Below, one piece after another: positions 6,396 to 61,628 of a stretch of 64,000 bases of DNA (the first letter of the stretch is position 1; each line of letters opens with the position of its first letter). Position numbers and translations under genes: made by a program. Under the pieces are notes generated by a model that made no database searches, had not been told where the DNA came from, and worked only from the letters and a program-made list of their open reading frames with translations. The DNA is taken from the IMG/VR virus record IMGVR_UViG_3300027365_000008; one strand, written 5' to 3'. Source of the DNA: a virus (taxonomy: Duplodnaviria > Heunggongvirae > Uroviricota > Caudoviricetes).

Positions 6396-7556
6396 ATGAC
6401 CCAGAAGAAACTCGTCCGTAAGATTGATCATCCGACACTTCCGCTTACCATTTCCAAGTACACCAAGACGGCGTTTCATAAACGCAAGTGGACTGAGGAA
6501 GTCATCAATTCACGAGGTCATGTGCATGATACAAATGGGAATCTGGTATCCTGCCCGTTCACCAAGTTTTTCAATCTGAATGAGACAATGGGTACGCGAA
6601 AGGATCATGTGGTTGACCTGATCAGTTCTCATTATCACGAAGCCGAAGTTCATATCAAATACAATGGTCACCTTGGGATTCTATTCAACTATCAGGGCGA
6701 GTGGATTAACACCACGTCTGGGTCATTCGAACACGATTTCATTAAGCCGGATCGTAACATCATCGACGAGAATGGATTCACGCCTGAACTATTAGATCGT
6801 CTTCCGTCTTCATGGACGCTGATCTTTGAAATCATCGGTGAACACGATCCCCATGTGATGACACCTATTCATCAACAGGAGTTGGGACGTGATAGCGCAG
6901 CCGTGCTATTAGGCGTTTACGATTCAACCACTCGTCAACCGGTTGATAACTACGAGAACACCATACTTTCTATCTGGTCTGAACTGGGGTGCAACACATA
7001 TCCGTTGTTCGCCAAGAAGCACAACTTCCGCGATCTGGTTCCTGTTAACACCAAGGAAGCTATCGGTGACTTCTTGGACGAGATGAAAAAGTGGGAAGAT
7101 ATGGAAGGGGTTATCCTTCATGTCCCGTCTATTGACTATAGGGTCAAAATCAAAACTGATTGGTTCATCAAGCATCGGTATATGCGTCAGTTCGATCATG
7201 CGAAGACGAAGGAACTCTTCGTGAACCTCTTTGATTCAGAGAAGGCATTCACCAAGATTCCCGAGGAACTGCATGAAGCCTATGAAACCTTCATCGGTCA
7301 ATACCGAACGTTCGAATCCAGCTACAAGAACACCATCATGGACACGGGAAAGCGTATCGTGGAAGCGTTCAAGACCCGTGATCTGATGAATCACTTTATT
7401 GACACAACAACGGAAATCAAAACAGAAGCGGAACGGGAGGTCATTAAAAGCTATCTCAATGGAGATTCAGATTCTGACCGTCTGATGCGTAACATCTTCG
7501 CTGAGAACATTGAAAACTTTTCGCTTATCGATCAATATATGATGAGTGATACCTAA
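6396..7556 (+). CDS. rnlA: ATP-dependent RNA ligase, T4 Rnl1 (RnlA)-like
   Basis: KFFNLNE motif shared with T4 Rnl1; candidate adenylylation lysine in HIKYNGHLG (KxNG for KxDG); 386 aa, close to T4 Rnl1 size. Confidence 0.65.
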   Translation: MTQKKLVRKIDHPTLPLTISKYTKTAFHKRKWTEEVINSRGHVHDTNGNLVSCPFTKFFNLNETMGTRKDHVVDLISSHYHEAEVHIKYNGHLGILFNYQGEWINTTSGSFEHDFIKPDRNIIDENGFTPELLDRLPSSWTLIFEIIGEHDPHVMTPIHQQELGRDSAAVLLGVYDSTTRQPVDNYENTILSIWSELGCNTYPLFAKKHNFRDLVPVNTKEAIGDFLDEMKKWEDMEGVILHVPSIDYRVKIKTDWFIKHRYMRQFDHAKTKELFVNLFDSEKAFTKIPEELHEAYETFIGQYRTFESSYKNTIMDTGKRIVEAFKTRDLMNHFIDTTTEIKTEAEREVIKSYLNGDSDSDRLMRNIFAENIENFSLIDQYMMSDT

Positions 7557-7569
7557 GAGGACATCTATC

Positions 7570-8739
7570 ATGCTAATCCTGTTGCGCTCGATTTCCTGTA
7601 TGGGGAAATCCACGTTGCTCAAGGCATTCGACAAATCAGACTACGTTTCATCCGATGATCTACGGGTGGAACTGTATGGCACCTACAATATCGATCCTGC
7701 CAAGTCTCAACACGTTTGGAAGGAAATGGCCCATCGCATCGATCTTCGGATGCGCCATGGGCGCTTTACGATTGTAGATGCCACTAACATCTCATTGAAA
7801 GGTATCAATGGGATGAAGCGTATCGCCGAGAATCACGGTCAGGAGACGCGCATCCTCAACATCGTGCCTGACATCAACCTTGCCATGAATCGCCTCTCGC
7901 GCCGCCGTGTGGGCGCTGCTGAGGGTGTTTTGATGCCGGATGCTGCTCTCCTTTGTCAACACGAGAAGTATCAGCGCGAAACGCCCAAAGTCATTGAATC
8001 CCACTCGGATATCTTCTACTCAGGAGATTACAATTCGGTTGAGACTCGGTTGAACTATCTGGCCCATCGTCGTAACAATTACATTGCCGAGACGGACAAC
8101 GTCTTTGTGATTGGCGACATTCATGGCATGAAATCAAAACTGAAAACCATGCTGGACAATCTTCCCAAGGAGTCATTGATTTTCAGTCTCGGTGATATGA
8201 TTGACCGAGGTGAAGATTCGATGGGGACGATCCAGATGCTCATGAACGACCCGCGTTTTGTGGGGTTCACCATGGGCAATCACGAGAAGGCGTTTCTTAA
8301 CGAACTGGAAAACGGAGGCAAATCGGTTTCTAATGCTCGTCAGGTGACCCATCAGGAGTTCAAACGCCTCAAAGTGACACAGCGAAAGGAGATTGTCGAG
8401 TTCCTGAAGCAAGGGAAGACGCATATCGTCCTTGAGCGATCCATCACTGGAAAGCGCTGTCTTCTCACTCATGCAGGGCTGGGTCATTATGATCCGATTC
8501 GGGTGACGTATGATCAGACCATTACTGATAAGGTCAATCCTGTTTCAGAGGTTCCTTCGGATTGGTTTGATATCCAGATTCATGGACACATGAGTTGGGA
8601 ATACAATGGTAACCTTGATGGAGCCGTGAAGAACATCGATTCCGGGTGTGGGCATGGGAAGGAGTTGACGGCTTACAATCCGTTTGACCCATCCCAGACG
8701 ATTGTGGTAACCTCGGATGGATATGTCATTCGGGGCTGA
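7570..8739 (+). CDS. bifunctional polynucleotide kinase / metallophosphoesterase (Pnkp-like)
   Basis: N-terminal P-loop kinase (SISCMGKST, IVDATNISLK as in T4 Pnk) fused to calcineurin-like phosphoesterase motifs (VIGDIHG, SLGDMIDRGEDS, GNHE). ATG at 7570 has RBS aagagga 8 nt upstream; a GTG at 7546 is the alternative start. Confidence 0.7.
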   Translation: MLILLRSISCMGKSTLLKAFDKSDYVSSDDLRVELYGTYNIDPAKSQHVWKEMAHRIDLRMRHGRFTIVDATNISLKGINGMKRIAENHGQETRILNIVPDINLAMNRLSRRRVGAAEGVLMPDAALLCQHEKYQRETPKVIESHSDIFYSGDYNSVETRLNYLAHRRNNYIAETDNVFVIGDIHGMKSKLKTMLDNLPKESLIFSLGDMIDRGEDSMGTIQMLMNDPRFVGFTMGNHEKAFLNELENGGKSVSNARQVTHQEFKRLKVTQRKEIVEFLKQGKTHIVLERSITGKRCLLTHAGLGHYDPIRVTYDQTITDKVNPVSEVPSDWFDIQIHGHMSWEYNGNLDGAVKNIDSGCGHGKELTAYNPFDPSQTIVVTSDGYVIRG

Positions 8740-19799: not shown

Positions 19800-21746
19800 A
19801 TGATGAGTTCATACGATCTTCAATACCAAGCGGCACTCAATCGTATTCTTCAATATGGATACGATTCTGATGACAGAACCGGTGTCGGAACCCGAAAGAT
19901 GTTCGATGTCAACTTCAATGATGATCTGCGTCATGAAGTGGCTGACGAATATAAACTACCGGCACTAACCATTCGCAAGGTCTTCCCCCGCACGGCATTC
20001 TATGAACTGATGTGGATGCTCAACGGGATTACCAACGTCGATTGGCTATATGAACGAAACATCAACATCTGGAATGGAAACAGCACTCGGGAGTTCCTTG
20101 ATTCTCGTGGTCTGTATCATATCCGTGAAGGGCATATCGGTCGCGGCTATGGCTATCAGATTCGCAACTTCAATGGGGTCGATCAACTCGAAGAACTGTT
20201 CAAGGGACTGTATTACAATCCTAACGGTAGGCGACATCTAATCTCATTCTGGAATCCCGGCGATCTGAAAGAGATGGCTCTGCCTCCATGTTTCGTTGCG
20301 GGAACACAGGTTGCTCTCGCTACAGGGGAATATAAGGCCATCGATTCGATTTCGGTAGGTGATTCGGTCTTAACATCATCCGGCGAATATCATCAGGTCT
20401 ACAATGTGATGAAAACCCCTTATGACGGGGATTTTGTAACTATCAAAGCTACGGGAATTCCAAACACGACATGTACTCCAAACCATCTCTTTCTGGTCAA
20501 GGACAAAGGATATGTTAAGGCTTCTTCCATCAACGTAGGTGACTTTGTGCTTGTTAGAGGGGCAAGCGAACACGAAAATATTCCTTCTTTCGAAATCAAG
20601 AAACATTCTAAAGCGTGGGGGGTAGAATCAGAACGAACGGAAGAAATATTTAGATTGGATTCCGAAGAGAAATGGTTTATGCTTGGGTACTTCGTAGGTA
20701 ATGGGTATGTGACATCTAATCGAGAGGGAGCAAAGCCAGACCGAGGAACGATATCAATACCTCTACATAAAGAAAATGATATAATCAATAGGTTTGGTGG
20801 TGTTATTAATCTCTATGTCAAGAATAGAACACAATCCATGGTGGCTATGGAATTCAGTTCTCGTAGATGGTCGACTGTCTTTAGAGAATTCGGGAGCAAA
20901 GCGCATGGGAAATTCATCCCTACGTGGGTTGAAGAATCTCCTAAGTGGGCAATTGAATCTTTCCTTGAAGGATATATCGCAGCAGATGGATGCATACTAG
21001 GAAATTCGTATTCGATAACGACGGTATCGCCATCATTGGCATACGGGGTTCAACGGTTATTCACTAAAATGGGTAAATCGGCTCGGGTCAGTAAACAAGT
21101 TCGACCAAAGACTACGATCATAGAGGGCAGAATTGTCAACCAAAGAGACACGTATACAATATCCGTAAGGATTGATGAGACAAAACGAAGATCATTCAAT
21201 TTCATCCATAATGAGAGTGGGATGTGGTGTAAGGTGGCTAAAGTTACCCACGAGAAGTCGAATGAACACGATGGGTTTGTGTATAACCTTAGCGTAGATA
21301 CTGATCACACGTACACTGCGAACAACATAGTCAATCATAATTGCCATTTATTGTACAATTTCGTTGTGACCGGGGAATATCTCAATCTGAAGTTCTATCA
21401 GCGCAGTGCCGATATGATCCTCGGGGTTCCGACAAACATCTGTTTTGCGACATTCTTCCTGACACTGGTCGCCAAATCACTTGGTTTCAAGGTCGGCGAA
21501 GTGGCCCATTCGATTGGGGATGCTCATATCTATTCCAATCATATTGAAGTCGCCGAAGAACTCGTTAATCGAGATGCCTTCGATCAACCCGTCTTCTCGA
21601 TGTGGGTTCCCAAATACGATCCGACGCAGGGAATCGAAAGCGTGCTGGCTCCTTATCGTGATGAAAACGCATGGGAAACGTATGTCCACCTGACCTACAA
21701 ATCTCATCCGCCCATTGACAAGTCACGGCTGACCATGGCAGTATAA
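19800..21746 (+). CDS. thyA: thymidylate synthase ThyA interrupted by an in-frame intein
   Basis: ThyA motifs (GYQIRNF, ALPP-C-H..YNFVV, DAHIY); a 351-aa insertion begins directly after ALPP and ends VNHN before the catalytic Cys. Confidence 0.85.
   Translation: MMSSYDLQYQAALNRILQYGYDSDDRTGVGTRKMFDVNFNDDLRHEVADEYKLPALTIRKVFPRTAFYELMWMLNGITNVDWLYERNINIWNGNSTREFLDSRGLYHIREGHIGRGYGYQIRNFNGVDQLEELFKGLYYNPNGRRHLISFWNPGDLKEMALPPCFVAGTQVALATGEYKAIDSISVGDSVLTSSGEYHQVYNVMKTPYDGDFVTIKATGIPNTTCTPNHLFLVKDKGYVKASSINVGDFVLVRGASEHENIPSFEIKKHSKAWGVESERTEEIFRLDSEEKWFMLGYFVGNGYVTSNREGAKPDRGTISIPLHKENDIINRFGGVINLYVKNRTQSMVAMEFSSRRWSTVFREFGSKAHGKFIPTWVEESPKWAIESFLEGYIAADGCILGNSYSITTVSPSLAYGVQRLFTKMGKSARVSKQVRPKTTIIEGRIVNQRDTYTISVRIDETKRRSFNFIHNESGMWCKVAKVTHEKSNEHDGFVYNLSVDTDHTYTANNIVNHNCHLLYNFVVTGEYLNLKFYQRSADMILGVPTNICFATFFLTLVAKSLGFKVGEVAHSIGDAHIYSNHIEVAEELVNRDAFDQPVFSMWVPKYDPTQGIESVLAPYRDENAWETYVHLTYKSHPPIDKSRLTMAV
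20289..21341 (+). other. intein with a LAGLIDADG homing endonuclease domain inside thyA
   Basis: Block A CFVAGTQVAL; two LAGLIDADG-like motifs (LGYFVGNGYV, LEGYIAADGC); C-terminal IVNHN followed by +1 Cys, which is the ThyA catalytic cysteine. Confidence 0.75.
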
Positions 21747-21797: not shown

Positions 21798-22010
21798 GTG
21801 ATCACCAAATCCAAACTGAAAGAAATCCTCTTAGAGCCTCTGGTTCTGTTCACCCTCATTGCACTGCCACTTGCTTATACAATCGGTGCGTTCACGAGTC
21901 TAAGTCTGAATCCTTTCGAGTGGGGAGGAATGACTCGATTCTTCCTTTCCCTTTTCATCATTTACAGCGTCATCATGGGTGGCGTCTTCTCTCACTTCAA
22001 ACGGTTCTGA
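21798..22010 (+). CDS. small membrane protein
   Basis: Two hydrophobic helices; GTG or ATG start. Confidence 0.4.
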   Translation: MITKSKLKEILLEPLVLFTLIALPLAYTIGAFTSLSLNPFEWGGMTRFFLSLFIIYSVIMGGVFSHFKRF

Positions 22011-22011
22011 T

Positions 22012-22563
22012 ATGAATACACTGATTCTCGATGTCGATGGTGTGCTGTTAGATTACGAAAAAGCGTTCAATCGTTTCTTTGGACTGGGCATGGAATTTTG
22101 GGAGATGAAGCGCAATGAAAGCGAAGTCGCTATCCCCATGTACCACTATTTCAACGACTCCGATGCCTTCGGTCTTATTGGTCCTGTGACTGGGGCGAGA
22201 GAGGGCGTACAGCTTGCCAGACGGCTTTTCGATAACGTAGTGGCAGTCACGGCTTGCGGTGATTCAGAAGTCACCAGAGAGCGTCGTGTGGCGAATTTGA
22301 ACCGGGTCTTTGGTGAATGGGCATTCGATGAAATCCATGTCCTTCCCGTGGCCTCATCCAAATACGAAGTCTTTGAGGAATATCAAGGTGGACCCGTGAT
22401 GCTCGTGGACGATTCGGCCCGTCACATCAAAACAGGAATGGAAAACGACTGGCACTGTGTCTATTTCGACACCAAGTACAATAGTGATCCCCATCCCGAT
22501 TTCATTGCTGCCAATGGCTGGGGTCTTGTTCAATTGCAATTCAAGGAGTTTCTAAATGCCTAA
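22012..22563 (+). CDS. HAD-superfamily 5'(3')-deoxyribonucleotidase-like protein
   Basis: Motif I LILDVDGVLLDY (DxDGV); size and position within a nucleotide-metabolism cluster. Confidence 0.55.
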   Translation: MNTLILDVDGVLLDYEKAFNRFFGLGMEFWEMKRNESEVAIPMYHYFNDSDAFGLIGPVTGAREGVQLARRLFDNVVAVTACGDSEVTRERRVANLNRVFGEWAFDEIHVLPVASSKYEVFEEYQGGPVMLVDDSARHIKTGMENDWHCVYFDTKYNSDPHPDFIAANGWGLVQLQFKEFLNA

Positions 22564-23143
22564 CCTAATGGATGCGATTAAAGCGACTCACAACGCCAAA
22601 GACCTCGTGGTGTCTGACGAATGTCCTCTTATCACCAAGCGGTTCGAGGGTTGTGTCCTCGAAGCCTATCAGGATACTGGTGGGGTATGGACAATCGGCT
22701 ATGGTCACACCGGATCAGATGTCACACCGGGTATGGTGATCGACATGGATACGGCGTTGCAGCTTCTCAAGCAAGACCTCAATGAACATGCGGATTATGT
22801 TCGAGAAGCGGTTTCTGTTCCTATTACCCAATACCAGTTCGATGCGCTGGCAGATTGGACCTTCAATCTGGGCGGTCATGCCCTGATGGAGTCTACTCTA
22901 CTGTCAAAAGTTAATGCATCGGCATCTGATGATGAAATCGCTTATGAGTTCATGCGCTGGGTCTATGATAATGGTCAATGGCTTCATGGCCTCACCAAAC
23001 GTCGTCAGGCAGAAGCATTACTGTTTTGTGGTATGGATTCATTAGACTTCGGTGAGTGGAAGTCTTACAATAAACGTCGATACAAGAAGTGGCTCAACAC
23101 GGTTGATTTCAAAGCAGTAGAACTGGAAAGATACGGACACTAA
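22556..23143 (+). CDS. GH24 phage lysozyme (T4 e / lambda R family)
   Basis: FEGCVLEAYQDTGGVWTIGYGHT, the catalytic E..D..T signature of GH24 lysozymes. Confidence 0.75.
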   Translation: MPNLMDAIKATHNAKDLVVSDECPLITKRFEGCVLEAYQDTGGVWTIGYGHTGSDVTPGMVIDMDTALQLLKQDLNEHADYVREAVSVPITQYQFDALADWTFNLGGHALMESTLLSKVNASASDDEIAYEFMRWVYDNGQWLHGLTKRRQAEALLFCGMDSLDFGEWKSYNKRRYKKWLNTVDFKAVELERYGH

Positions 23144-23156
23144 AGGAGAATAGAAT

Positions 23157-24224
23157 ATGCGAGAACTGGCAACGATTCGTCGGGTTGACGAAGTGACTCC
23201 CATTGAAGGCGCTGATGCCATTGAATGTGTCAAGGTGGGTGGTTGGCGTGTGGTAGCAAAGAAGAATGAAATGAAGGAAGATGATCTGATTGTCTTCTTC
23301 GAGATCGATAGCTTCCTTCCATCTTCCGATGAACGGTTCGCTTTTCTGATGCAACGCGGAACGAAGACTCTGAATGGTGTCGAAGGCTTCCGTTTGCGCA
23401 CGGTGAAACTTCGTGGGCAGGTATCCCAAGGGCTGGCTCTTCCCCTGTCCCTCTTCCCTGAACTCGAAGGGGTAGAAGAGGATACCGATGTATCAGAAAC
23501 GCTCAATATCATCAAATATGAGCGTCCTGAGCCTCTACGTGGTAAGAAGCCATCACATACCAAAGGTGACTTCCCGTGGTTCATTAGTAAAACCGATGAG
23601 CCGCGTATCCAAAACGTCAAACCGATAACAATTCAGCAACATCGTGATACGCTGTTTGTCCCTACGCTGAAACTGGATGGCAGTTCAACGACCGTGTATT
23701 ACGTCAAGGACGAGCGATACTTCATCAAACCCGAGGAAGGCGAAACCGAACAGGTAGGAATCTGTTCTCGAAATCTGCTTCTTGATCCTAATAAAGACCC
23801 GGATAACCATTTCGTTCGTGGCGCTATCGCCAGTGATCTATTCGAAATCGTGGCGCAGATTGGTCGTGATCTGGATTGGAACCTTGCGCTACAAGCGGAA
23901 ACCATCGGTGAAGGTATCGTTAGGTCTTGGGAACAGATTGAAGGCCCAGTATCGTTGGTGTTCTCCATCTATGACATCGACCGTGCTGAGTATCTGCCTG
24001 CCGGGCGTCTCATGGAACTGATCAAGACCTATGACATTCCTAGTACGATGTTTTACGATCCTATCTATGCATTCAGGGATTACACCCAAGACGAACTGAT
24101 TGCAATGGCTGACGGACCAAGCCTGAAGAATCCTATTCGTGAAGGGCTGGTATTCAAGGCGATGGATGGATCGTATTCCTTCAAGTCCATCAGTAACAAA
24201 TTCCTTTTGAAAGGCGGCGAATGA
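23157..24224 (+). CDS. ATP-dependent nick-sealing RNA ligase of the DraRnl/NgrRnl (Rnl5) type
   Basis: Nucleotidyltransferase motif I TLKLDGSS (KxDG) about residue 170 with a distinctive N-terminal domain (IEGADAIECVKVGGWRVVAKK.E.KEDDLIVFFEIDSFLP); 355 aa. Confidence 0.55.
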   Translation: MRELATIRRVDEVTPIEGADAIECVKVGGWRVVAKKNEMKEDDLIVFFEIDSFLPSSDERFAFLMQRGTKTLNGVEGFRLRTVKLRGQVSQGLALPLSLFPELEGVEEDTDVSETLNIIKYERPEPLRGKKPSHTKGDFPWFISKTDEPRIQNVKPITIQQHRDTLFVPTLKLDGSSTTVYYVKDERYFIKPEEGETEQVGICSRNLLLDPNKDPDNHFVRGAIASDLFEIVAQIGRDLDWNLALQAETIGEGIVRSWEQIEGPVSLVFSIYDIDRAEYLPAGRLMELIKTYDIPSTMFYDPIYAFRDYTQDELIAMADGPSLKNPIREGLVFKAMDGSYSFKSISNKFLLKGGE

Positions 24225-24416
24225 ATGAATTACCTCAAACGAGGCTGGCAAGCGCATATCGATGTCGTGGTCACACTCATTGGCATCGCCTTGTACATCA
24301 TTGCCGCTATGACCGGGCTGGGTGACGGGGCTTATCTAATCTCGCTCGTCATGACACTCGCCGGGTCTTCTTGGACTTGGCTTGGACTTATCCAACGGTG
24401 GAAATATAATGACTGA
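24225..24416 (+). CDS. small membrane protein
   Basis: Two TM helices. Confidence 0.4.
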   Translation: MNYLKRGWQAHIDVVVTLIGIALYIIAAMTGLGDGAYLISLVMTLAGSSWTWLGLIQRWKYND

Positions 24417-24588
24417 CTACATCAAAGAAATCGGGCTGTTCTTGGTAACAGTCATGTCAATCGTAATCCTCTTCGGGGTGATTGGTTGGGGGCTGGTGTT
24501 TTTCGCTATCGCTATCGTCGGTCTGTTCCTGATTGGCGTTATCGTCGGGACTTACGAAACCATCAAAAACAAACTGAAAAGGAAGTAA
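24409..24588 (+). CDS. small membrane protein
   Basis: ATG overlaps the upstream stop (ATGACTGA); two TM helices. Confidence 0.4.
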   Translation: MTDYIKEIGLFLVTVMSIVILFGVIGWGLVFFAIAIVGLFLIGVIVGTYETIKNKLKRK

Positions 24589-24589
24589 T

Positions 24590-24832
24590 ATGTTTAAACG
24601 ATTCCATGAAATGTTGGTAAAGATTGTATTCTTGATCCCATTCACGATAACTTTCATTCTGATCTCCATCGGGGTGATCTCGGTGATGATCGGATACACT
24701 ATCCATCGGGCAATCGCCAAACTTCACAATTGGTTTCTGCCCAAGGATTCAAAATGGAAGCGTGTTGAAATGCCAGAATTGACTAAGGTAGTCAAATCCG
24801 CAATCAAAGAGCATAAGGAGGAATCAGAATGA
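24590..24832 (+). CDS. small membrane protein
   Basis: Two hydrophobic helices. Confidence 0.4.
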   Translation: MFKRFHEMLVKIVFLIPFTITFILISIGVISVMIGYTIHRAIAKLHNWFLPKDSKWKRVEMPELTKVVKSAIKEHKEESE

Positions 24833-24933
24833 GCGGCTTGGATTGGATTTTGGTTGCGTGTGGTGTCGGGCTTGTGGTTGCGGGTCAGCCGATTCTCGGT
24901 ATGATGTTCATTCTTCTTGCGGCGGTATTTTGA
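24829..24933 (+). CDS. 34-aa membrane peptide
   Basis: ATGA overlap with the upstream stop; a single TM helix; not in the supplied ORF track. Confidence 0.3.
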   Translation: MSGLDWILVACGVGLVVAGQPILGMMFILLAAVF

Positions 24934-24942
24934 GGGGTTAGT

Positions 24943-25218
24943 ATGGCTATAAAATTCAAAACTAAACGACCGATTTTTCATGTGTCACATTGTTCTCTTC
25001 CGTGTATTATCGAATACGGGAGGGGCGTCTATCTCGTCAATTTTCATCCGAAGGATAGTCACCGTGTCGTGATGATGAAGATTCATGATCTGACGGGTGG
25101 AAGTAATTGTATCGATGAACATAGTGCGGTGATAATCTTGCCATTAACATCACTCAATGGCTTTCCTTATCATGTCGGACCAATTCAATTGGAAAACGAT
25201 GGTATTGAAGATTGCTAG
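24943..25218 (+). CDS. hypothetical protein
   Basis: ORF. Confidence 0.4.
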   Translation: MAIKFKTKRPIFHVSHCSLPCIIEYGRGVYLVNFHPKDSHRVVMMKIHDLTGGSNCIDEHSAVIILPLTSLNGFPYHVGPIQLENDGIEDC

Positions 25219-25227
25219 AAGAATGGT

Positions 25228-25256
25228 TTGACTCCACTCCCATACCATAGTAGAAT
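25228..25256 (+). promoter_or_regulatory. sigma70-like promoter upstream of nrdA
   Basis: TTGACT, a 17-nt spacer, then TAGAAT. Confidence 0.5.
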
Positions 25257-25273
25257 CATCTGGATAGACCGCT

Positions 25274-25305
25274 CGGGGAAGATAAATAGACTTCCCCCTT
25301 TTTTA
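25274..25305 (+). promoter_or_regulatory. hairpin plus U-tract in the nrdA leader (terminator of the upstream gene and/or an attenuator)
   Basis: ggggaag..cttcccc stem followed by cttttttat, 25 nt before the nrdA ATG. Confidence 0.45.
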
Positions 25306-25329
25306 TGACACACAAGGAGAAAGGCATAT

Positions 25330-28300
25330 ATGTCAACGATTATGGTTACCAAGCGTGATGGAAGCGTGGAAGACTTCAAGGTTGAGAAGGTTCGCAAATG
25401 CATCAACTGGGCATGTGAAGGTCTTCAAGTCAATCCTCTCGCATTGGAATCCCGTTTCAATGAATATCTCCAAACCGAAGTAACCACCAAAGTCATTCAA
25501 GACAGCCTCGTGTTCTGTGCGCGTTCCCTAGCCACGGCGGCTGATTCGGATTTCGTGTTCGTCGCGGGTCGCCTGATGACCATGAACATCTGGAAAGAGA
25601 CGGGCATCTATGAGAAGCCCTTCTATGACGTGCTGACCGATGGCGTGGTTCCCTATGCTATCGATAACACAATTCTTTCGAAATACACCAAAGCCGAGAT
25701 CGAGGAACTGGGTTCCTATATGGTTCAGGAACGTGATCTGAATCATAGCTTTGGTAGCGTTCTGACGGCGATCAACAAGTACCTGCTTCCTAATGAAGCC
25801 ATCCAGCCGATGATCATGGCATCCTCGATGATCATTGCCAGTGTGGAGGATCAGGAGATTCGTGTTGCGAAGGCCAAAGAGTTCTATGATTCTTTGTCAA
25901 ATCGTGAACTTTCTTTGGCAACTCCGTGGTGGGGTAACCTGCGCAGCGATGGCAATATCAGTTCGTGTTTCATCATCAAGCCGAGTGATAGCCTCGAATC
26001 GATCTTCGCTAATGTGACTCGTGCCGCAATGACTTCCAAGGCGGGTGGTGGCCTTGGCGTGTCTATGGCAGCTATTCGTGCCCAAGGCTCTCCGGTCGGT
26101 GGGCGTCCCAACTCGTCCAAAGGCGTATTCAATTGGACGAAGATTTTCAATGATGTTGCGATTGCGGTTGACCAGTGTTTTCATCCTGATACACTAGTCA
26201 CCACTCAGAATGGATTCAAGGCAATCAAAGACATTATTCCCCGCGAGGATCGTGTTCTCACCGACAACGGGAAGTTTAACCGGGTAGAAGAAAAGATCAT
26301 GTATGAGCAAAGCGAGCCGATGTATCGTGTTCGCACAGCACATGATCTTGTCGATACCTTTGTAACCGGGGAACATCCCGTTAAGGCTCTTACCAATCTG
26401 GATACCCTTGAACATGGTTACTTGGATGTGAAGGACTTGGAGATTGGTGATTATCTGGGTCAGAAGATTCCGTCTTATACGATTGAATCGGAGTTGACCC
26501 ATGAAGAACTGTACGCTTATGGTACGTCGCTCATGCTTCCGGGGGCAAATCACATCGATTCTCGATTCCTCCATATTGAACCTGAGAAACAGATGTCGAT
26601 TATCTTTGGTATGATCGATGCCAAAGGATCGGCTGACAATGCAAATGAACTGATCATCGAATCTGCGAATCTGGCTCATGAGATTCGATATCTGCTTCTC
26701 CGTAATGGAATCCCAGTAAAATCAGAATACGTCGGGGGATCATTCAAACTCACTATCCAAGCCACTGGCAAGCTGGCTCTTATGCTTGGTGTCAACGATG
26801 TCGAAGAGGTTGACTGGATCGTTTCGGATGGGTATATTTTCAGCCCCATCACTGAGTTTGAGGACGGGATTGAATACAATTCAGAAGTTTACGATCTGCG
26901 TGTGCAGAGTATTCCGTCTTATCAAACACATGCGTTCATGGCTCACAACGGCGGCAAGCGGGCAGGAGCCATTACCGTCGAACTCCCGATCTGGCACCGT
27001 GACATCGAAGGGTTCCTTGAGATTCAACATGAAACCGGCGATCTGCGCACCAAGTGCTTTGACATCTTTCCGCAAGTCGGGATGCATGATCTGTTCATGA
27101 AAATGGATGCGGCTGATGGTGAAAACGATTGGCATACATTCTGTCCGTATGAAGTGAAACAGGTTCTCGATATCCAACTGGATGAAGTTTACGGCAAGGA
27201 GTTCGAAAAGGCGTACAAGAAGTGTGTCAAAGCCTATGAGAAGGGTGATCTGAAGAACGTCGCCGTGTACAAGACACGTAACCTGATCAAGTCGATGATG
27301 CGTACCCAGTTCGAATCTGGTCTTCCGTATGTGGCCTATCTGGACACCATCAATGATGACAACCCGAATGACCATGAAGGCACGATTCCTTCCGTCAACC
27401 TTTGTGTCGCTCCCGAGACTTTGGTGCTGACTGACAAGGGCAATCTTCCTATCGTAACACTGAAAGATCAGTGGGTTAACGTCTGGAATGGACACGAGTT
27501 TAGCGAGGTCTTGGTTGAAAAGACGGCGGACCATGCTCATCTGCTGCATGTAGAAACGGAAGGCGGTCGTTCACTGGATGCGACGGACTATCACAAATGG
27601 TATCGCGTCGTCGATGGTGAAATGGAAATGGTTCGGACCTTTGAACTGAAACCGGGCGATGAAGTTTGTGTAGTCGATAACTATCCCATTGATCGTATCA
27701 AGTCTATTGATGACCAATACCGGTGGTCTGATGTATACTGTTTCAATGAACCGAAACGGCATCTGGGCGTATTCAATGGCATTATCACCGGGCAATGCAA
27801 TGAGTCATTCAGTGTCGTCAAGCCGGATGTCTATGGTCACTCGTGCAATCTGATCTCTATCGTCGCCGGTCGAGTTAAGGATTACGAACATCTGGAATAT
27901 CTGGCAGGTCTTGCGACTCGAATGCTTGACAATGGGATCGAACTGACCAAAGACCCCATGGACATTGCCGGTGCCCATAATGAGCGTTACCGCACGATTG
28001 GTATTGGCATCCAAGGTCTTCACGATTGGCTTGCCAAGAATCGCAAGATGTACAACGATACTAAATTCATCGGTGAGTTTGCAGAGACGATTCAATTTGG
28101 TGCGGTGAAAGAGAGCATCAAACTAGCTAAAGAACGCGGCGCGTATCCGGCGTACTCGGGTTCTCGGTGGGATACCGGTAAGCAGATTGCCAAGTATCGC
28201 AAGCACAGTCGTCGTGGTCTTGACTGGAATTCTTTGCAAACTGGACTTGATCAATATGGCATCCGCAATAGCCAATTGACTTCTCCGGCACCGAACACAA

Positions 28301-28695
28301 CCACGTCCATTTTCATGGATGCAGGTCCGGGCGTGATGCCGTGCTATGGTGGGTTCTATCTCAAGGACAATACCAATGGGGAGTTCCCGGTTGCCGGTAT
28401 GTATCTGAAAGAGAATCCGTTGTGCTATGCCAAGAATGCGGCTCGCTATGATCATGAAACACTCGTCAATGCGGTTGCCGAAATCCAGAAGTTCACGGAT
28501 GCGGGCATTTCGAGCGAGTATATCTTTGACCACAACAAAGAGGGCTTCAGTGCGAAAGAACTGTATGATCTGATTCATCTGGCATGGCGTAAGAAGACCA
28601 AGGCGGTCTATTACATTCGTAACATCAAGAAAGGTTCTAACCTCGAAGAAGAGGTCGGCATGAGCCAAGCATCATGCGAAGGTTGCGCAAACTAA
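25330..28695 (+). CDS. nrdA: class Ia ribonucleotide reductase alpha subunit NrdA carrying two inteins
   Basis: ATP cone (VTKRDGSVEDF); SSCFII (Cys225 region); GGKRAGAITVELPIWH; NLC-N-E active-site loop; C-terminal CEGC. Two in-frame insertions carry intein blocks. Confidence 0.85.
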   Translation: MSTIMVTKRDGSVEDFKVEKVRKCINWACEGLQVNPLALESRFNEYLQTEVTTKVIQDSLVFCARSLATAADSDFVFVAGRLMTMNIWKETGIYEKPFYDVLTDGVVPYAIDNTILSKYTKAEIEELGSYMVQERDLNHSFGSVLTAINKYLLPNEAIQPMIMASSMIIASVEDQEIRVAKAKEFYDSLSNRELSLATPWWGNLRSDGNISSCFIIKPSDSLESIFANVTRAAMTSKAGGGLGVSMAAIRAQGSPVGGRPNSSKGVFNWTKIFNDVAIAVDQCFHPDTLVTTQNGFKAIKDIIPREDRVLTDNGKFNRVEEKIMYEQSEPMYRVRTAHDLVDTFVTGEHPVKALTNLDTLEHGYLDVKDLEIGDYLGQKIPSYTIESELTHEELYAYGTSLMLPGANHIDSRFLHIEPEKQMSIIFGMIDAKGSADNANELIIESANLAHEIRYLLLRNGIPVKSEYVGGSFKLTIQATGKLALMLGVNDVEEVDWIVSDGYIFSPITEFEDGIEYNSEVYDLRVQSIPSYQTHAFMAHNGGKRAGAITVELPIWHRDIEGFLEIQHETGDLRTKCFDIFPQVGMHDLFMKMDAADGENDWHTFCPYEVKQVLDIQLDEVYGKEFEKAYKKCVKAYEKGDLKNVAVYKTRNLIKSMMRTQFESGLPYVAYLDTINDDNPNDHEGTIPSVNLCVAPETLVLTDKGNLPIVTLKDQWVNVWNGHEFSEVLVEKTADHAHLLHVETEGGRSLDATDYHKWYRVVDGEMEMVRTFELKPGDEVCVVDNYPIDRIKSIDDQYRWSDVYCFNEPKRHLGVFNGIITGQCNESFSVVKPDVYGHSCNLISIVAGRVKDYEHLEYLAGLATRMLDNGIELTKDPMDIAGAHNERYRTIGIGIQGLHDWLAKNRKMYNDTKFIGEFAETIQFGAVKESIKLAKERGAYPAYSGSRWDTGKQIAKYRKHSRRGLDWNSLQTGLDQYGIRNSQLTSPAPNTTTSIFMDAGPGVMPCYGGFYLKDNTNGEFPVAGMYLKENPLCYAKNAARYDHETLVNAVAEIQKFTDAGISSEYIFDHNKEGFSAKELYDLIHLAWRKKTKAVYYIRNIKKGSNLEEEVGMSQASCEGCAN
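26176..26949 (+). other. intein 1 in nrdA (258 aa, LAGLIDADG-type) with a non-canonical +1 residue
   Basis: Block A CFHPDTLV; block B TGEHPVKALT; IIFGMIDAKGS LAGLIDADG-like; block G VYDLRVQ...HAFMAHN; the next extein residue is Gly, not Cys/Ser/Thr. Confidence 0.65.
27403..27795 (+). other. intein 2 in nrdA (131-aa mini-intein) ending in Gln
   Basis: Inserted at NL|C-N-E; block A CVAPETLVLT; block G VYCFNEPKRHLGVFNGIITGQ followed by +1 Cys (the active-site Cys439 equivalent). Confidence 0.65.
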
Positions 28696-44240: not shown

Positions 44241-45128
44241 TCATTTGAATCCAAATAGACTACGCTTCACTTCGTTTTTTCTCGATTGGATATCGAATCC
44301 CATACCCTTGAGGTAGTTGTTAATCGTCTTGTTGGCTTTCTCCCATTGTTTGTCGTAATCGATAATGATGTCATCCATGAAATCGGGAAGTGTCATGGCG
44401 TCAACCGGATATGCGATGTACTTGGACTTCGGATGCTTGATGTACACCACACCGACCTTATCACCGGGCATGATCTGACGATCTGTTTCAGAACACATTG
44501 AATTGTAAAACATCGAGGCGCGAACCGTATAATGAAATCCATGTTGGCTCCCGGTTTGCTCAAAGATGTCAAGACACTTCTTCAGAGTGTTGCACCCTGA
44601 CGGTGATGCAATCTCCTTCAAAGGCGCTTGCTTATATTCCTGTTTGAACTGCTTCACCATGCGACTCAATTGGGCAGCATCCTTCCCGTCGATAATCGCT
44701 TCCACCACTTCAGTCAGGAATTGCTTCAGGAGAACCGGGGTGTTGCTCTTCCTGATCTCAAGCCCCATCAGCTTCAACGAGTCGGTCGGCTTCCCTTCCT
44801 TGTTGACCACATGAGCAGCGTACCGCTTCTTGGTCAGGAAGAACGACTTATCCGATATGATCTCTCGATCTGTCTGAATAACGTCCTTGCGGTCCTCGGG
44901 GACATTGAAGGCATCCATGATGAACTCGGGGAAAAGAGAATTGACATGCTGACCAATCTCATCCGCGATTTCACAGACCTCATTCACATCAGCATCCGCG
45001 TCGAAGAACGGGAGTTTCATGTAACACGAGTCCGTGTCCCCGGCAATCCCCATGTCAGCATGATAGCTTCGATAAACGAATTTATCCCCCTCTTTGAAAA
45101 GGGCTGGAAATTCAATCTTATTGCTCAA
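44241..45128 (-). CDS. family-B DNA polymerase, C-terminal cistron (gp43B-like: palm motif C plus thumb)
   Basis: IAGDTDSCYM (motif C) and KKRYAAHV (KKRY). TTG start preceded by AGGAG with a 6-nt spacer; overlaps the 43A stop by 11 nt. Confidence 0.75.
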   Translation of the reverse strand: MSNKIEFPALFKEGDKFVYRSYHADMGIAGDTDSCYMKLPFFDADADVNEVCEIADEIGQHVNSLFPEFIMDAFNVPEDRKDVIQTDREIISDKSFFLTKKRYAAHVVNKEGKPTDSLKLMGLEIRKSNTPVLLKQFLTEVVEAIIDGKDAAQLSRMVKQFKQEYKQAPLKEIASPSGCNTLKKCLDIFEQTGSQHGFHYTVRASMFYNSMCSETDRQIMPGDKVGVVYIKHPKSKYIAYPVDAMTLPDFMDDIIIDYDKQWEKANKTINNYLKGMGFDIQSRKNEVKRSLFGFK

Positions 45129-46893
45129 GACATTCTCCTGCTTCTTTAATTGTATCGTTAACCATCTTCATCTGTGCTTTCGAAATGATCTGTCCAGTCA
45201 ACGTGATTGACTTACCGAGATCGATGTCAAAGAATCGGAAGTGGTTATTGGTGATGGCACCATAGGCGCTGTTGATGACGATCTTGCTTGCCATCTGGTA
45301 GAGGTCGTACAGGGCTTCTTTTTCCTTGTCTCCAGCCTTAGCGGCTTCCTTCATCATTACTTTGTAATGCTTTCGAGTCTCGAAACCATTGCGAATGACT
45401 CGTGACACGAACCCATCTTTTCCGGTGAAGATGCATCCGTTGGCAGAGATACAGTACCCCTGTTCACGAATGAACTCCATCGCTTCCTTGCCGGTGAAGT
45501 GGAAGTCTTCGCCCTTCAGGTGGCGATAATCCACATGTTGTCCGACCGCTTGCAATACCACTTCATCCTCGCTTTCGGTTACGATCTTGATGTAATCCTG
45601 AAAGCGATTCTTGGCTTGGAAGATGTAGGTTTCTGGACTGATACCAAGCATCATCATCACGGACGGATACAGACTGGTCAAGTCATACGATGCCATCCAT
45701 TCGTGTCGCCCGGTCATCGTCTCATAGACGTAACCCCCTTCCAAGGTTTCCTTGTCATGGTCCTTCTTGTCAGGCACCACCACTAGCTGATTGGGATCAT
45801 GAGTATGGCAATAGTTGACCACCAGTGATTCAATCATCTTTACGGTACCCAGAACGTCAGGGAACCGAATTGTAGCTTTGCGTCCCAACTGAATCAGAAG
45901 TTCGATGATGCGCTTCTTGTCATTCAGCTTCTTGAGCAATCGGGCATCCTGAAGGCTGTATTCAAAGAATGTCTGCGGGTCATTCCGATAGAGTTCACCG
46001 AGGTTATCATCATAATCGGTTTTCTTCTCGCCCAGTTCTTCCTCGGCAATAGCATTCAGGGCATAGGACCGCTTGACTTCATACGTGAACTTCTTATAGA
46101 TGTCCAGCATGTCGAGGTGAAGGCGTCCGACGAGTTCCCATTTGGTGAAGTCATTTCCAAAAGCATCGACCTTCTCAGACGACTTTGCCAAGAAATCATC
46201 ACGACAGAGTAGCGAGGGTGCCGATGCTCCGAAGTGTTTAGTAGCCCGCGCCATGATGTAGGGAATATCGAACTTATCCCCGTTCCAAGCGGTTAGAATA
46301 TCGATATCCTTGATGACATCGGCAAAGCACAATAGAAGATCACGCTCATTGCGCGTGCGATGGATTATGACAGGATATTCGCCATCCGGGTCTTTCAGAG
46401 TGACTTTGTTGAGTTCCGGGGTATCAAACATCAACATATGATATTCGCCTTTAGCGGTATCAAACAGGCTGATGGCGTTGATCTCCCCAAAAGGATTCTC
46501 GGGTCTTGGATAACCTAGTCCGTCCTTCAGGTTGAAATCGACCTCAATATCAAAGAATCCGATGTGAACCGGAACTTCCGTATCAGTGGAATGGTAGGTA
46601 TCAGAAAGATGTTTGTATTCGGGAGCGATGTCCGATTCAAACAGATCGTTGCGATGACTTTTGAAGTCTTTGAACTCCTTGAAGGACTCGAAATCGACTC
46701 GCTTCACCGGGTCACCGAAGATACTGACGGCTTCCGGGGTGGCGGACTTCATGTAGCAGTAATAGGGGGCCGGAACCACATTCGTAAAGAGTTCACCATT
46801 ACGATCTCGTTCCCAGCACCAAACTTCGTCTCGAATACGAGTTGCGTCAATGTACATCAAATCTCCTTCATTCAGATAGAAAAGGGAGGACAC
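45118..46893 (-). CDS. family-B DNA polymerase, N-terminal cistron (gp43A-like: 3'-5' exonuclease plus motifs A and B)
   Basis: Exo I FFDIEV; Exo II WNGDKFDIPY; motif A YDLTSLYPS; motif B KIVINSAYG. Confidence 0.85.
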   Translation of the reverse strand: MSSLFYLNEGDLMYIDATRIRDEVWCWERDRNGELFTNVVPAPYYCYMKSATPEAVSIFGDPVKRVDFESFKEFKDFKSHRNDLFESDIAPEYKHLSDTYHSTDTEVPVHIGFFDIEVDFNLKDGLGYPRPENPFGEINAISLFDTAKGEYHMLMFDTPELNKVTLKDPDGEYPVIIHRTRNERDLLLCFADVIKDIDILTAWNGDKFDIPYIMARATKHFGASAPSLLCRDDFLAKSSEKVDAFGNDFTKWELVGRLHLDMLDIYKKFTYEVKRSYALNAIAEEELGEKKTDYDDNLGELYRNDPQTFFEYSLQDARLLKKLNDKKRIIELLIQLGRKATIRFPDVLGTVKMIESLVVNYCHTHDPNQLVVVPDKKDHDKETLEGGYVYETMTGRHEWMASYDLTSLYPSVMMMLGISPETYIFQAKNRFQDYIKIVTESEDEVVLQAVGQHVDYRHLKGEDFHFTGKEAMEFIREQGYCISANGCIFTGKDGFVSRVIRNGFETRKHYKVMMKEAAKAGDKEKEALYDLYQMASKIVINSAYGAITNNHFRFFDIDLGKSITLTGQIISKAQMKMVNDTIKEAGECLEQ

Positions 46894-60727: not shown

Positions 60728-60991
60728 TTACTCGGCGGCGAGCATCGTGATAATCTCTATCCGCCTTAGCTGTTTATTAATACGGTCAGGGTGACGCTTA
60801 GTACCTTTCAGATACTCAAGGAAGTCTAATTCCTTGAGCCATGCCGCGTCAAACTCATCAGCAGTCATTCGCCGATATGACTCCACCATTGGAAGTTCGG
60901 AATCGAGAAACTTTTTGTTACATGCCATGACAATGCCCCCATAGTTCACCGTCTTCATCAAAGTCATATTCATTCGCTTCAATGGATTCAA
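60728..60991 (-). CDS. hypothetical protein
   Basis: ORF. Confidence 0.35.
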   Translation of the reverse strand: MNPLKRMNMTLMKTVNYGGIVMACNKKFLDSELPMVESYRRMTADEFDAAWLKELDFLEYLKGTKRHPDRINKQLRRIEIITMLAAE

Positions 60992-61628
60992 TCACCGCTT
61001 CGTCGCTAGTCAGATATTCGTATTCCTTTTCCAGATTGCGATAAATCCAATCGGCAAACGAACGAAGAGTATCTTTCAAATGATCGTGATTGTTTTCAAC
61101 CGCGTCCTCCATGAGTTTGAACGCGGCTTCCTCGCCCATCAAATGTTCAACGGGTATCCATTTGTCAGAATCCGCTTCGATATGAACATCCATACAACCT
61201 GAATTGTAATAATAATGATGACCATCGTGTTTCATTGTCGCTTCGAGCGAATACCGGGCATCTTTCTGAGCCGCTTCCAAGGCTTCACCAATCTTAATCA
61301 GGGCTTGTAAATCGTCACCACCAACATGATCGGTCAGATTTGCTTTCCAATCCTTGTTGTAAGTGTAACTTCCTTCGAAACAAGCCCCATCGCCTTGACT
61401 ATAGAATCCCGAAAAGTAAACATTTTCTATCTCGATTCCCAACGTCTCGCCAATCTGCTTGGCGGCTTCTATCGTGAAGTCATACCATTCATGATCGATG
61501 TTTATATCCCTGAATCGCTCGATTGCATTCTCTTTTGCATCGTCAGACAATTCATTGAACTTGAAAAGTGTCACTTCGACTTTAGTAGGCATCTTTGAAC
61601 TTCCTTCAATGATTGGTATTAAGCACAA
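60918..61628 (-). CDS. hypothetical protein
   Basis: ORF with a conserved-looking SGFYSQGDGACFEG segment. Confidence 0.4.
   Translation of the reverse strand: MCLIPIIEGSSKMPTKVEVTLFKFNELSDDAKENAIERFRDINIDHEWYDFTIEAAKQIGETLGIEIENVYFSGFYSQGDGACFEGSYTYNKDWKANLTDHVGGDDLQALIKIGEALEAAQKDARYSLEATMKHDGHHYYYNSGCMDVHIEADSDKWIPVEHLMGEEAAFKLMEDAVENNHDHLKDTLRSFADWIYRNLEKEYEYLTSDEAVIESIEANEYDFDEDGELWGHCHGM

Follow-up and report, generated by a model that had tools for sequence, protein, structure and literature searches.

A putative Rnl5-family RNA ligase in a large T4-like phage that also encodes an Rnl1-like ligase and a kinase-phosphatase

Background

What kind of ligase is encoded at positions 23157-24224 (+ strand) of a phage sequence from IMG/VR (IMGVR_UViG_3300027365_000008), and what would it do in a phage that also encodes a second, apparently unrelated RNA ligase and a kinase-phosphatase? 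The stretch analysed, referred to here as the window, comprises 64 kb of the genome; the protein collection records the ligase on a contig of 158 kb, so that the whole genome is at least this long. Its gene of interest resembles the Rnl5 RNA ligases, whose biological role has been called "uncharted" (PMC5397189), and our literature search found no paper characterising a phage Rnl5 enzyme or its role. Phage Rnl5 genes are themselves already known: Aeromonas phage 44RR2.8t was aligned with the Deinococcus radiodurans ligase DraRnl in 2007 (PMC1807946), homologs in phages of Aeromonas, Caulobacter, Mycobacterium and Sinorhizobium were listed in 2015 (PMC4408790), and at least one deposited phage, Pseudomonas phage Boevelstad, has Rnl5 together with Rnl1.

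Results and discussion

The gene and its neighbours

The gene is a complete open reading frame of 355 codons, running from an ATG at 23157 to a TGA at 24222-24224. A Shine-Dalgarno sequence read from the DNA (AGGAG, 23144-23148, + strand) lies 8 nt upstream of the ATG and immediately follows the end of a lysozyme gene (22556-23143; PF00959, E = 4.7e-43), whose stop is 13 nt from the ligase start. The ATG of the next ORF, at 24225, abuts the ligase stop codon, and the whole arrangement has the tight packing of an operon. The GC content (0.485) is like that of the neighbouring genes. Two reverse-strand ORFs that overlap the gene (23042-23620 and 23889-24257) were rejected as shadow ORFs, the + strand gene being strongly supported. 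Around the gene, promoter-like sites (7 found, 5.3 expected by shuffling) and terminator-like sites (2 found, 3.3 expected by shuffling) did not exceed expectation.

Directly downstream (24225-24832, + strand) are three short hydrophobic-rich ORFs of 63, 68 and 80 aa, of which those of 63 and 80 aa were scanned against the PHROGs and had no match; they may encode holin- or spanin-like lysis proteins, and with the lysozyme gene on its other side the ligase gene would then belong to a loose lysis cluster. Two genes upstream (21979-22563, + strand) is a 194-aa protein with a HAD-type DVDGV motif and weak similarity to PHROGs of 5'-3' deoxyribonucleotidase and polynucleotide-kinase phosphatase. 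A relative (L003) has a similarly sized gene at this position, and a role in nucleotide metabolism seems likelier for this protein than one in end healing.

Family membership and domain layout

The first-pass annotation of this locus had proposed the layout of the Rnl5 enzymes of Deinococcus and Naegleria, and profile comparisons bear this out. Residues 2-352 of the protein align by phmmer with chain residues 5-336 of NgrRnl, the RNA ligase of Naegleria gruberi (E = 1.6e-69), with 42.8% identity by BLASTP (PDB 5COT), and every match in a sequence search of the solved structures in the PDB was NgrRnl or an NgrRnl point mutant. The NCBIfam equivalog model TIGR02306 (RNA_lig_DRB0094), which carries the name of the D. 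radiodurans enzyme, is matched along its entire length (profile positions 1-341 of 341), with a score of 174.8 bits that exceeds the curated cutoff of 151.15. The protein also matches PHROG 968, "RNA ligase" (E = 3.3e-79), and of the 8000 candidates scored from the protein collection 6809 are homologs at E<=1e-10, a likeness far greater than chance would give.

Two domains account for most of the chain. The N-terminal OB-fold domain (23166-23447, + strand; residues 4-97) matches PF21189 "PHA02142 OB-fold" with an E-value of 3.6e-35 and is the signature module of Rnl5; as had been claimed, the N-terminal region of about 100 residues is unlike Rnl1 or Rnl2, from both of which this Pfam domain is absent. 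The nucleotidyltransferase (adenylyltransferase) domain (23655-24185, + strand; residues 167-343) matches PF09414 "RNA ligase" with an E-value of 1e-15, the profile that had been suggested as a check, and also matches NgrRnl in Foldseek. There is no C-terminal appendage: the protein stops 12 residues past the motif V lysine, K343, and the alignment with NgrRnl extends to residue 352 of 355.

Other ligase families fit less well. The product has no match to the Rnl1 profile PF09511, and its nucleotidyltransferase domain is C-terminal, after the OB domain, whereas that of Rnl2 is N-terminal. An ATP-dependent DNA ligase, or a nucleotidyltransferase that is not a ligase at all, could in principle be misread as an RNA ligase, given that the KxDG motif is common to the covalent nucleotidyltransferase superfamily, but the product has no PF01068 match, and its OB domain is N-terminal, whereas that of DNA ligases is C-terminal (PMC7261155).

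Predicted fold

An AlphaFold2 model of the protein has a mean pLDDT of 92.8 and a pTM of 0.89, with an all-beta N-terminal OB domain. In a Foldseek search of the PDB the top 13 matches are all NgrRnl (E about 1e-36, TM 0.85-0.90, about 357 columns), in line with the comparison to NgrRnl structures that the first-pass annotation had called for. Next come ligases of the Rnl3, REL1, Rnl2 and Rnl1 types, which match over the nucleotidyltransferase core only (E from 1e-6 to 1e-5, TM about 0.4); T4 Rnl2 scores TM 0.42-0.43 with E about 1e-5, again over the core only, and T4 Rnl1 a TM of about 0.39. The model is drawn from the family alignment, and it corroborates the sequence homology rather than providing independent proof.

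DNA ligases also appear among the weak Foldseek matches, at E-values of 1e-3 or above and TM of about 0.3. The NgrRnl matches, however, surpass those to any DNA ligase by some 30 orders of magnitude. A closest likeness to DNA ligases or to non-ligase nucleotidyltransferases, which had been named in advance as evidence against an RNA ligase, was therefore not seen, and we consider a misread DNA ligase or non-ligase enzyme extremely improbable.

Active site and proposed reaction

The KxDG motif that had been noticed about 170 residues into the protein is motif I (TLKLDG, 23664-23681, + strand; within the peptide TLKLDGSS), and its lysine is residue 172 (nt 23670-23672). It aligns with T168, K170, D172 and G173 of NgrRnl; K172 is predicted to be the AMP-accepting lysine and D174 a ligand of metal-bound water, and T170 and G175 are identical to the NgrRnl residues as well. 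In motif Ia, S204-R205 are aligned and conserved. Motif III (LQAETIG, 23889-23909, + strand) contains E248, equivalent to NgrRnl E227, and motifs IV and V (REGLVFK and SFKSIS, 24138-24194, + strand) contain E329 and K343, equivalent to NgrRnl E312 and K326.

In NgrRnl, the residues that touch ATP and the two metals are R4, D53 and K121 of the OB domain and R149, K170, D172, E227, E312 and K326 of the nucleotidyltransferase domain (PMC7261155). All nine are conserved in the phage protein by HMMER alignment, as R2, D51, K120, R150, K172, D174, E248, E329 and K343. The OB residues R2, D51 and K120 correspond to NgrRnl R4, D53 and K121, which orient the ATP gamma-phosphate and the pyrophosphate leaving group. 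Conservation was also measured in an alignment of 34 diverse homologs, 40-61% identical, in which K120 and D174 are at least 90% conserved and the other seven of the nine contact residues are invariant; the full invariant set is R2, D51, R150, K172, G175, R205, E248, E329 and K343.

Since the catalytic residues are all conserved, the enzyme looks catalytically intact. A decayed or catalytically dead copy is hardly credible: nothing was found to support it, the ORF is full length with every catalytic residue in place, and the ortholog in a related phage is 61% identical, as against 43% for the Rnl1-like gene of the same two phages. Taken with the profile matches and the domain order, these features make it very probable that 23157-24224 encodes a catalytically competent ATP-dependent RNA ligase of the Rnl5 family, with the OB domain first, the nucleotidyltransferase domain second and no appendage after it.

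By homology to NgrRnl and DraRnl, catalysis would begin with attack of K172 on the ATP alpha-phosphate to form a ligase-(lysyl)-AMP. The catalytic metal would be held through waters by D174, E248 and E329, and the ATP phosphates contacted by R150 and K343, while the OB residues R2, K120 and D51 would position the pyrophosphate leaving group and a second metal; adenylylation of K172 is thus expected to be a two-metal reaction that requires the N-terminal OB domain. In the second step the AMP would be handed to the 5'-phosphate at a nick, and in the third, attack by the 3'-OH would seal it.

The Rnl1-like ligase and the kinase-phosphatase

A second, unrelated ligase in the same phage had been claimed, and one is indeed present. 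The gene at 6396-7556 (+ strand) encodes a 386-aa Rnl1-type RNA ligase that matches PF09511 (RNA_lig_T4_1) above its cutoff (E = 6.6e-10) and PHROG 562 (E = 4.7e-33), which is labelled "RNA ligase and tail fiber attachment catalyst". Its candidate motif I is IKYNGHLG. It scores 31 bits against the NCBIfam model TIGR02308, so far under the cutoff of 242 that it must be regarded as a divergent member, and a phmmer search of the PDB gave no match for it. No pairwise similarity to the Rnl5 protein is detectable (BLASTP E = 0.21). A candidate third ligase with a KHDG motif (60918-61628, - strand) was rejected, having no Pfam match and only a PHROG of unknown function.

Overlapping the Rnl1-like gene by 11 nt is a gene (7546-8739, + strand) for a protein with an AAA_33 P-loop kinase domain and a Metallophos domain. 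Among the NCBIfam models it scores best against TIGR04075 bacter_Pnkp (E = 2.2e-18), aligning with profile positions 7-324 of 851. The phosphatase domain retains intact GDIHG, GDMIDRG and GNHE motifs, and weak PDB matches are to the kinase and phosphatase domains of Clostridium thermocellum Pnkp and to lambda phosphatase. The Pnkp that had been reported for this phage is accordingly present as a kinase plus metallophosphoesterase, a putative bacterial Pnkp-like healing enzyme recognised at the domain level; the likeness does not extend to the T4 enzyme, which is of the HAD-phosphatase type.

The fused 737-aa proteins of phrog_8238 are matched by the kinase-phosphatase at positions 4-350 and by the Rnl1-like ligase at positions 436-686. 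The window has the opposite order, ligase first, in two overlapping genes that resemble a split and permuted bacterial-Pnkp-like repair module, and the split, ligase-first arrangement is found also in the relative L009.

The phage and its relatives

The window is part of a large T4-like myovirus. It encodes a T4 gp15-type tail sheath stabiliser, a clamp-loader-like AAA protein, a DnaB-type helicase and a family B DNA polymerase, as well as thymidylate synthase and both subunits of ribonucleotide reductase. A tRNA scan of the window found none.

The closest homolog of the Rnl5 protein on a long contig (P0005, 61% identity) is on the 32-kb Logan contig SRR31654890_8905, where the gene order is that of the window: DnaB, ThyA, a 186-aa protein, lysozyme, Rnl5, NrdA and NrdB. 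This contig also has a 43%-identical Rnl1-like gene overlapping a gene for a 391-aa AAA_33 kinase, with the same three-gene order, and Rnl5 is thus the better conserved of the two ligases between these phages (61% versus 43% identity). The retention of the Rnl5, Rnl1-like and kinase genes in the relative indicates that they are a stable feature of the phage lineage. The closest Rnl5 relatives (57-62% identity) are only in unannotated metagenome assemblies; a megablast of positions 22000-26000 against deposited phages gave no match, and there is thus no close sequenced relative in that collection; a scan of the viral-contig collection found no relative, and a scan of the metagenome collection found two, both distant.

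The family B DNA polymerase (44241-46893, - strand) is present as two ORFs of 591 and 295 aa with an 11-nt overlap, which match PHROG 262 at positions 9-563 and 570-846, and it is either genuinely split or frameshifted. The thymidylate synthase gene (19800-21746, + strand) contains a 351-aa intein (nt 20289-21341) that includes a LAGLIDADG homing-endonuclease domain and interrupts the protein just ahead of its catalytic cysteine (ALPP|C...HN|CH); the ThyA of relative L003, 60% identical and 292 aa long, is without the intein. The large subunit of ribonucleotide reductase (25330-28695, + strand; 1121 aa) has two intein-like insertions (nt 26176-26949 and 27403-27795), each with weak Hint/intein Pfam matches only. 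The first, of 258 aa (AVDQ|CFHPDT...FMAHN|GGKRAGA), is apparently followed by Gly and not by Cys, Ser or Thr, which would be non-canonical for splicing, and the second, of 131 aa (VNL|CVAPET...IITGQ|CNES), is a mini-intein with a terminal Gln instead of Asn.

Expected substrate and possible roles

What the sequence and the model show is the family to which the protein belongs, its domain layout, its fold and the intactness of its active site; its substrate preference would be that of its characterised homologs. Both DraRnl and NgrRnl require RNA on the 3'-OH side but tolerate either RNA or DNA as the template and as the 5'-phosphate strand; manganese is their preferred metal, and they join single-stranded RNA poorly (PMC1807946, PMC4408790). 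By analogy, the phage enzyme would be expected to act on a duplex nick with RNA on the 3'-OH side and with RNA or DNA as the 5'-phosphate strand and the template, and to prefer Mn2+. T4 Rnl2 has the same specificity in vitro as the Rnl5 enzymes, for 3'-OH RNA nicks (PMC5397189), and we infer that the phage Rnl5 is likely to be a sealer of RNA-terminated duplex nicks and a functional counterpart of T4 Rnl2. The Rnl1-like ligase and kinase-phosphatase are likely to form a unit that heals and seals breaks in single-stranded loops of RNA, for example the anticodon loops of tRNAs, and the simplest reading of the three genes would be a division of labour as in T4 between this pair and Rnl5. The first-pass annotation had suggested a second RNA target or the sealing of RNA/DNA hybrid nicks; either would fit the published specificity of Rnl5 enzymes and is offered here as speculation. 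No conserved partner gene was found around Rnl5 in other phages, so that its surroundings do not point clearly to a target.

The presence of all three genes in one phage and their conservation together in the relative could also mean that Rnl5 serves the same pathway as the Rnl1-like ligase and kinase-phosphatase, as a redundant or alternative sealer of tRNA or other RNA breaks made by host anticodon nucleases and then healed. Deposited phages likewise combine Rnl5 with Rnl1 and phosphoesterases: Boevelstad is in both the Rnl5 and the Rnl1 match lists, and its Rnl1 gene has a phosphoesterase, a small ATPase and an ATP-dependent DNA ligase nearby; Sinorhizobium phages are in both the Rnl5 and the Pnkp-like match lists, and in phiM12 a metallophosphoesterase is 2 kb from the Rnl5 gene. 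However, the Rnl5 gene of the window lies about 15 kb from the Rnl1/Pnkp pair, whose own two genes overlap; Rnl5 enzymes require a template-bound nick; and NgrRnl differs from T4 Rnl1 in that it adenylylates single-stranded pRNA but does not join it (PMC4408790). A shared pathway is accordingly improbable.

The setting of the gene raises another possibility, that Rnl5 functions in replication, recombination or repair of the phage DNA, and not in mending RNA, by sealing nicks that end in a 3' ribonucleotide, as at RNA primers or ribo-patches, beside a 5'-phosphate DNA strand. In both the window and the relative the gene is within a conserved block for replication and nucleotide metabolism (DnaB, ThyA and the large and small subunits of ribonucleotide reductase), and DNA can serve Rnl5 enzymes both as the 5'-PO4 strand and as the template (PMC4408790). 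The ligase activity of DraRnl promotes genome reassembly after irradiation, and the Deinococcus knockout has a DNA-repair phenotype (PMC5397189). Among the ORFs of at least 250 aa in the window there is neither a DNA ligase (PF01068) nor a second PF09414 protein of the kind to which Rnl2 belongs. Against this, lying among early or metabolic genes counts for little, the immediate neighbours are lysozyme and small membrane-protein ORFs, and most of the genome lies outside the window and could hold a DNA ligase, as Boevelstad does alongside its Rnl5. A function on the DNA side is therefore possible but somewhat unlikely, and its more specific form, that Rnl5 of this T4-like lineage is a sealer of ribonucleotide-3'-ended nicks in phage DNA, co-inherited with the DnaB-ThyA-ribonucleotide reductase block and filling the role of T4 Rnl2, is a tentative proposal that we would rate as rather unlikely. 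If true, a role on the DNA side would be the first physiological role for any viral Rnl5.

A division of labour as in T4 remains the preferred reading, and it too depends on the rest of the genome: an Rnl2 or a DNA ligase may lie outside the 64-kb window, and its presence would weaken the comparison of Rnl5 with T4 Rnl2. For annotation, "Rnl5-family nick-sealing RNA ligase" is a suitable gene label, a routine one by which little is changed if it is true. A phage lineage that stably keeps Rnl5 as well as an Rnl1-like ligase and kinase-phosphatase offers a reasonable setting in which to ask if the two ligases act on different substrates.

Comparison with known RNA ligases

The protein shares with NgrRnl the N-terminal OB domain, the C-terminal nucleotidyltransferase domain, the lack of an appendage and an identical motif I (KLDG). 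It differs in being 15 residues longer, with a 12-residue insertion after motif I (about residues 184-197) and smaller gaps elsewhere, and in being a viral protein of predicted activity, whereas NgrRnl is eukaryal. The founding member of the family, DraRnl (DR_B0094), has the same domain order, the threonine and lysine of motif I, and motifs Ia, III, IV and V (PMC1807946). Its motif I, however, is KLHG rather than KLDG (PMC1807946), its motif Ia is S-K rather than S-R, and its operon partner, a DEDDh-like exonuclease (PMC5397189), has no counterpart seen beside the phage gene.

Human RLIG1 (C12orf29) has a nucleotidyltransferase domain that resembles that of NgrRnl, with equivalent catalytic residues, but no N-terminal OB domain precedes it and the enzyme leaves nicks unsealed (PMC9931718). 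T4 Rnl2 (gp24.1) has the PF09414 nucleotidyltransferase core in common with the phage enzyme, and the combination of a nick sealer with an Rnl1/end-healing pair parallels the T4 set of Rnl1, Rnl2 and Pnkp; Rnl2 nevertheless carries a helical domain at its C-terminus, lacks an OB domain at its N-terminus, and is not a member of the Rnl5 family.

Homologs were found by tblastn in 337 deposited phage records, and in 322 of them the match spans 80% or more of the query. None reaches 60% identity; among the matches listed, that of Salicola phage SCTP-2 is the highest, at 40.0%, and most are annotated "RNA ligase". The protein is thus slightly closer to the Naegleria enzyme (42.8%, BLASTP) than to the deposited phage homologs listed (40.0% or less, tblastn), a hint that genes may have passed horizontally between amoebae and viral or bacterial donors. 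The product of 23157-24224 is a fairly divergent addition to the known Rnl5 family, and it has the same architecture as the phage homologs of PHROG 968, including those of Aeromonas phage 44RR2.8t, Sinorhizobium phage phiM12, Salicola phage SCTP-2 and Pseudomonas phage Boevelstad, which are carried mostly by large T4-like or jumbo myoviruses.
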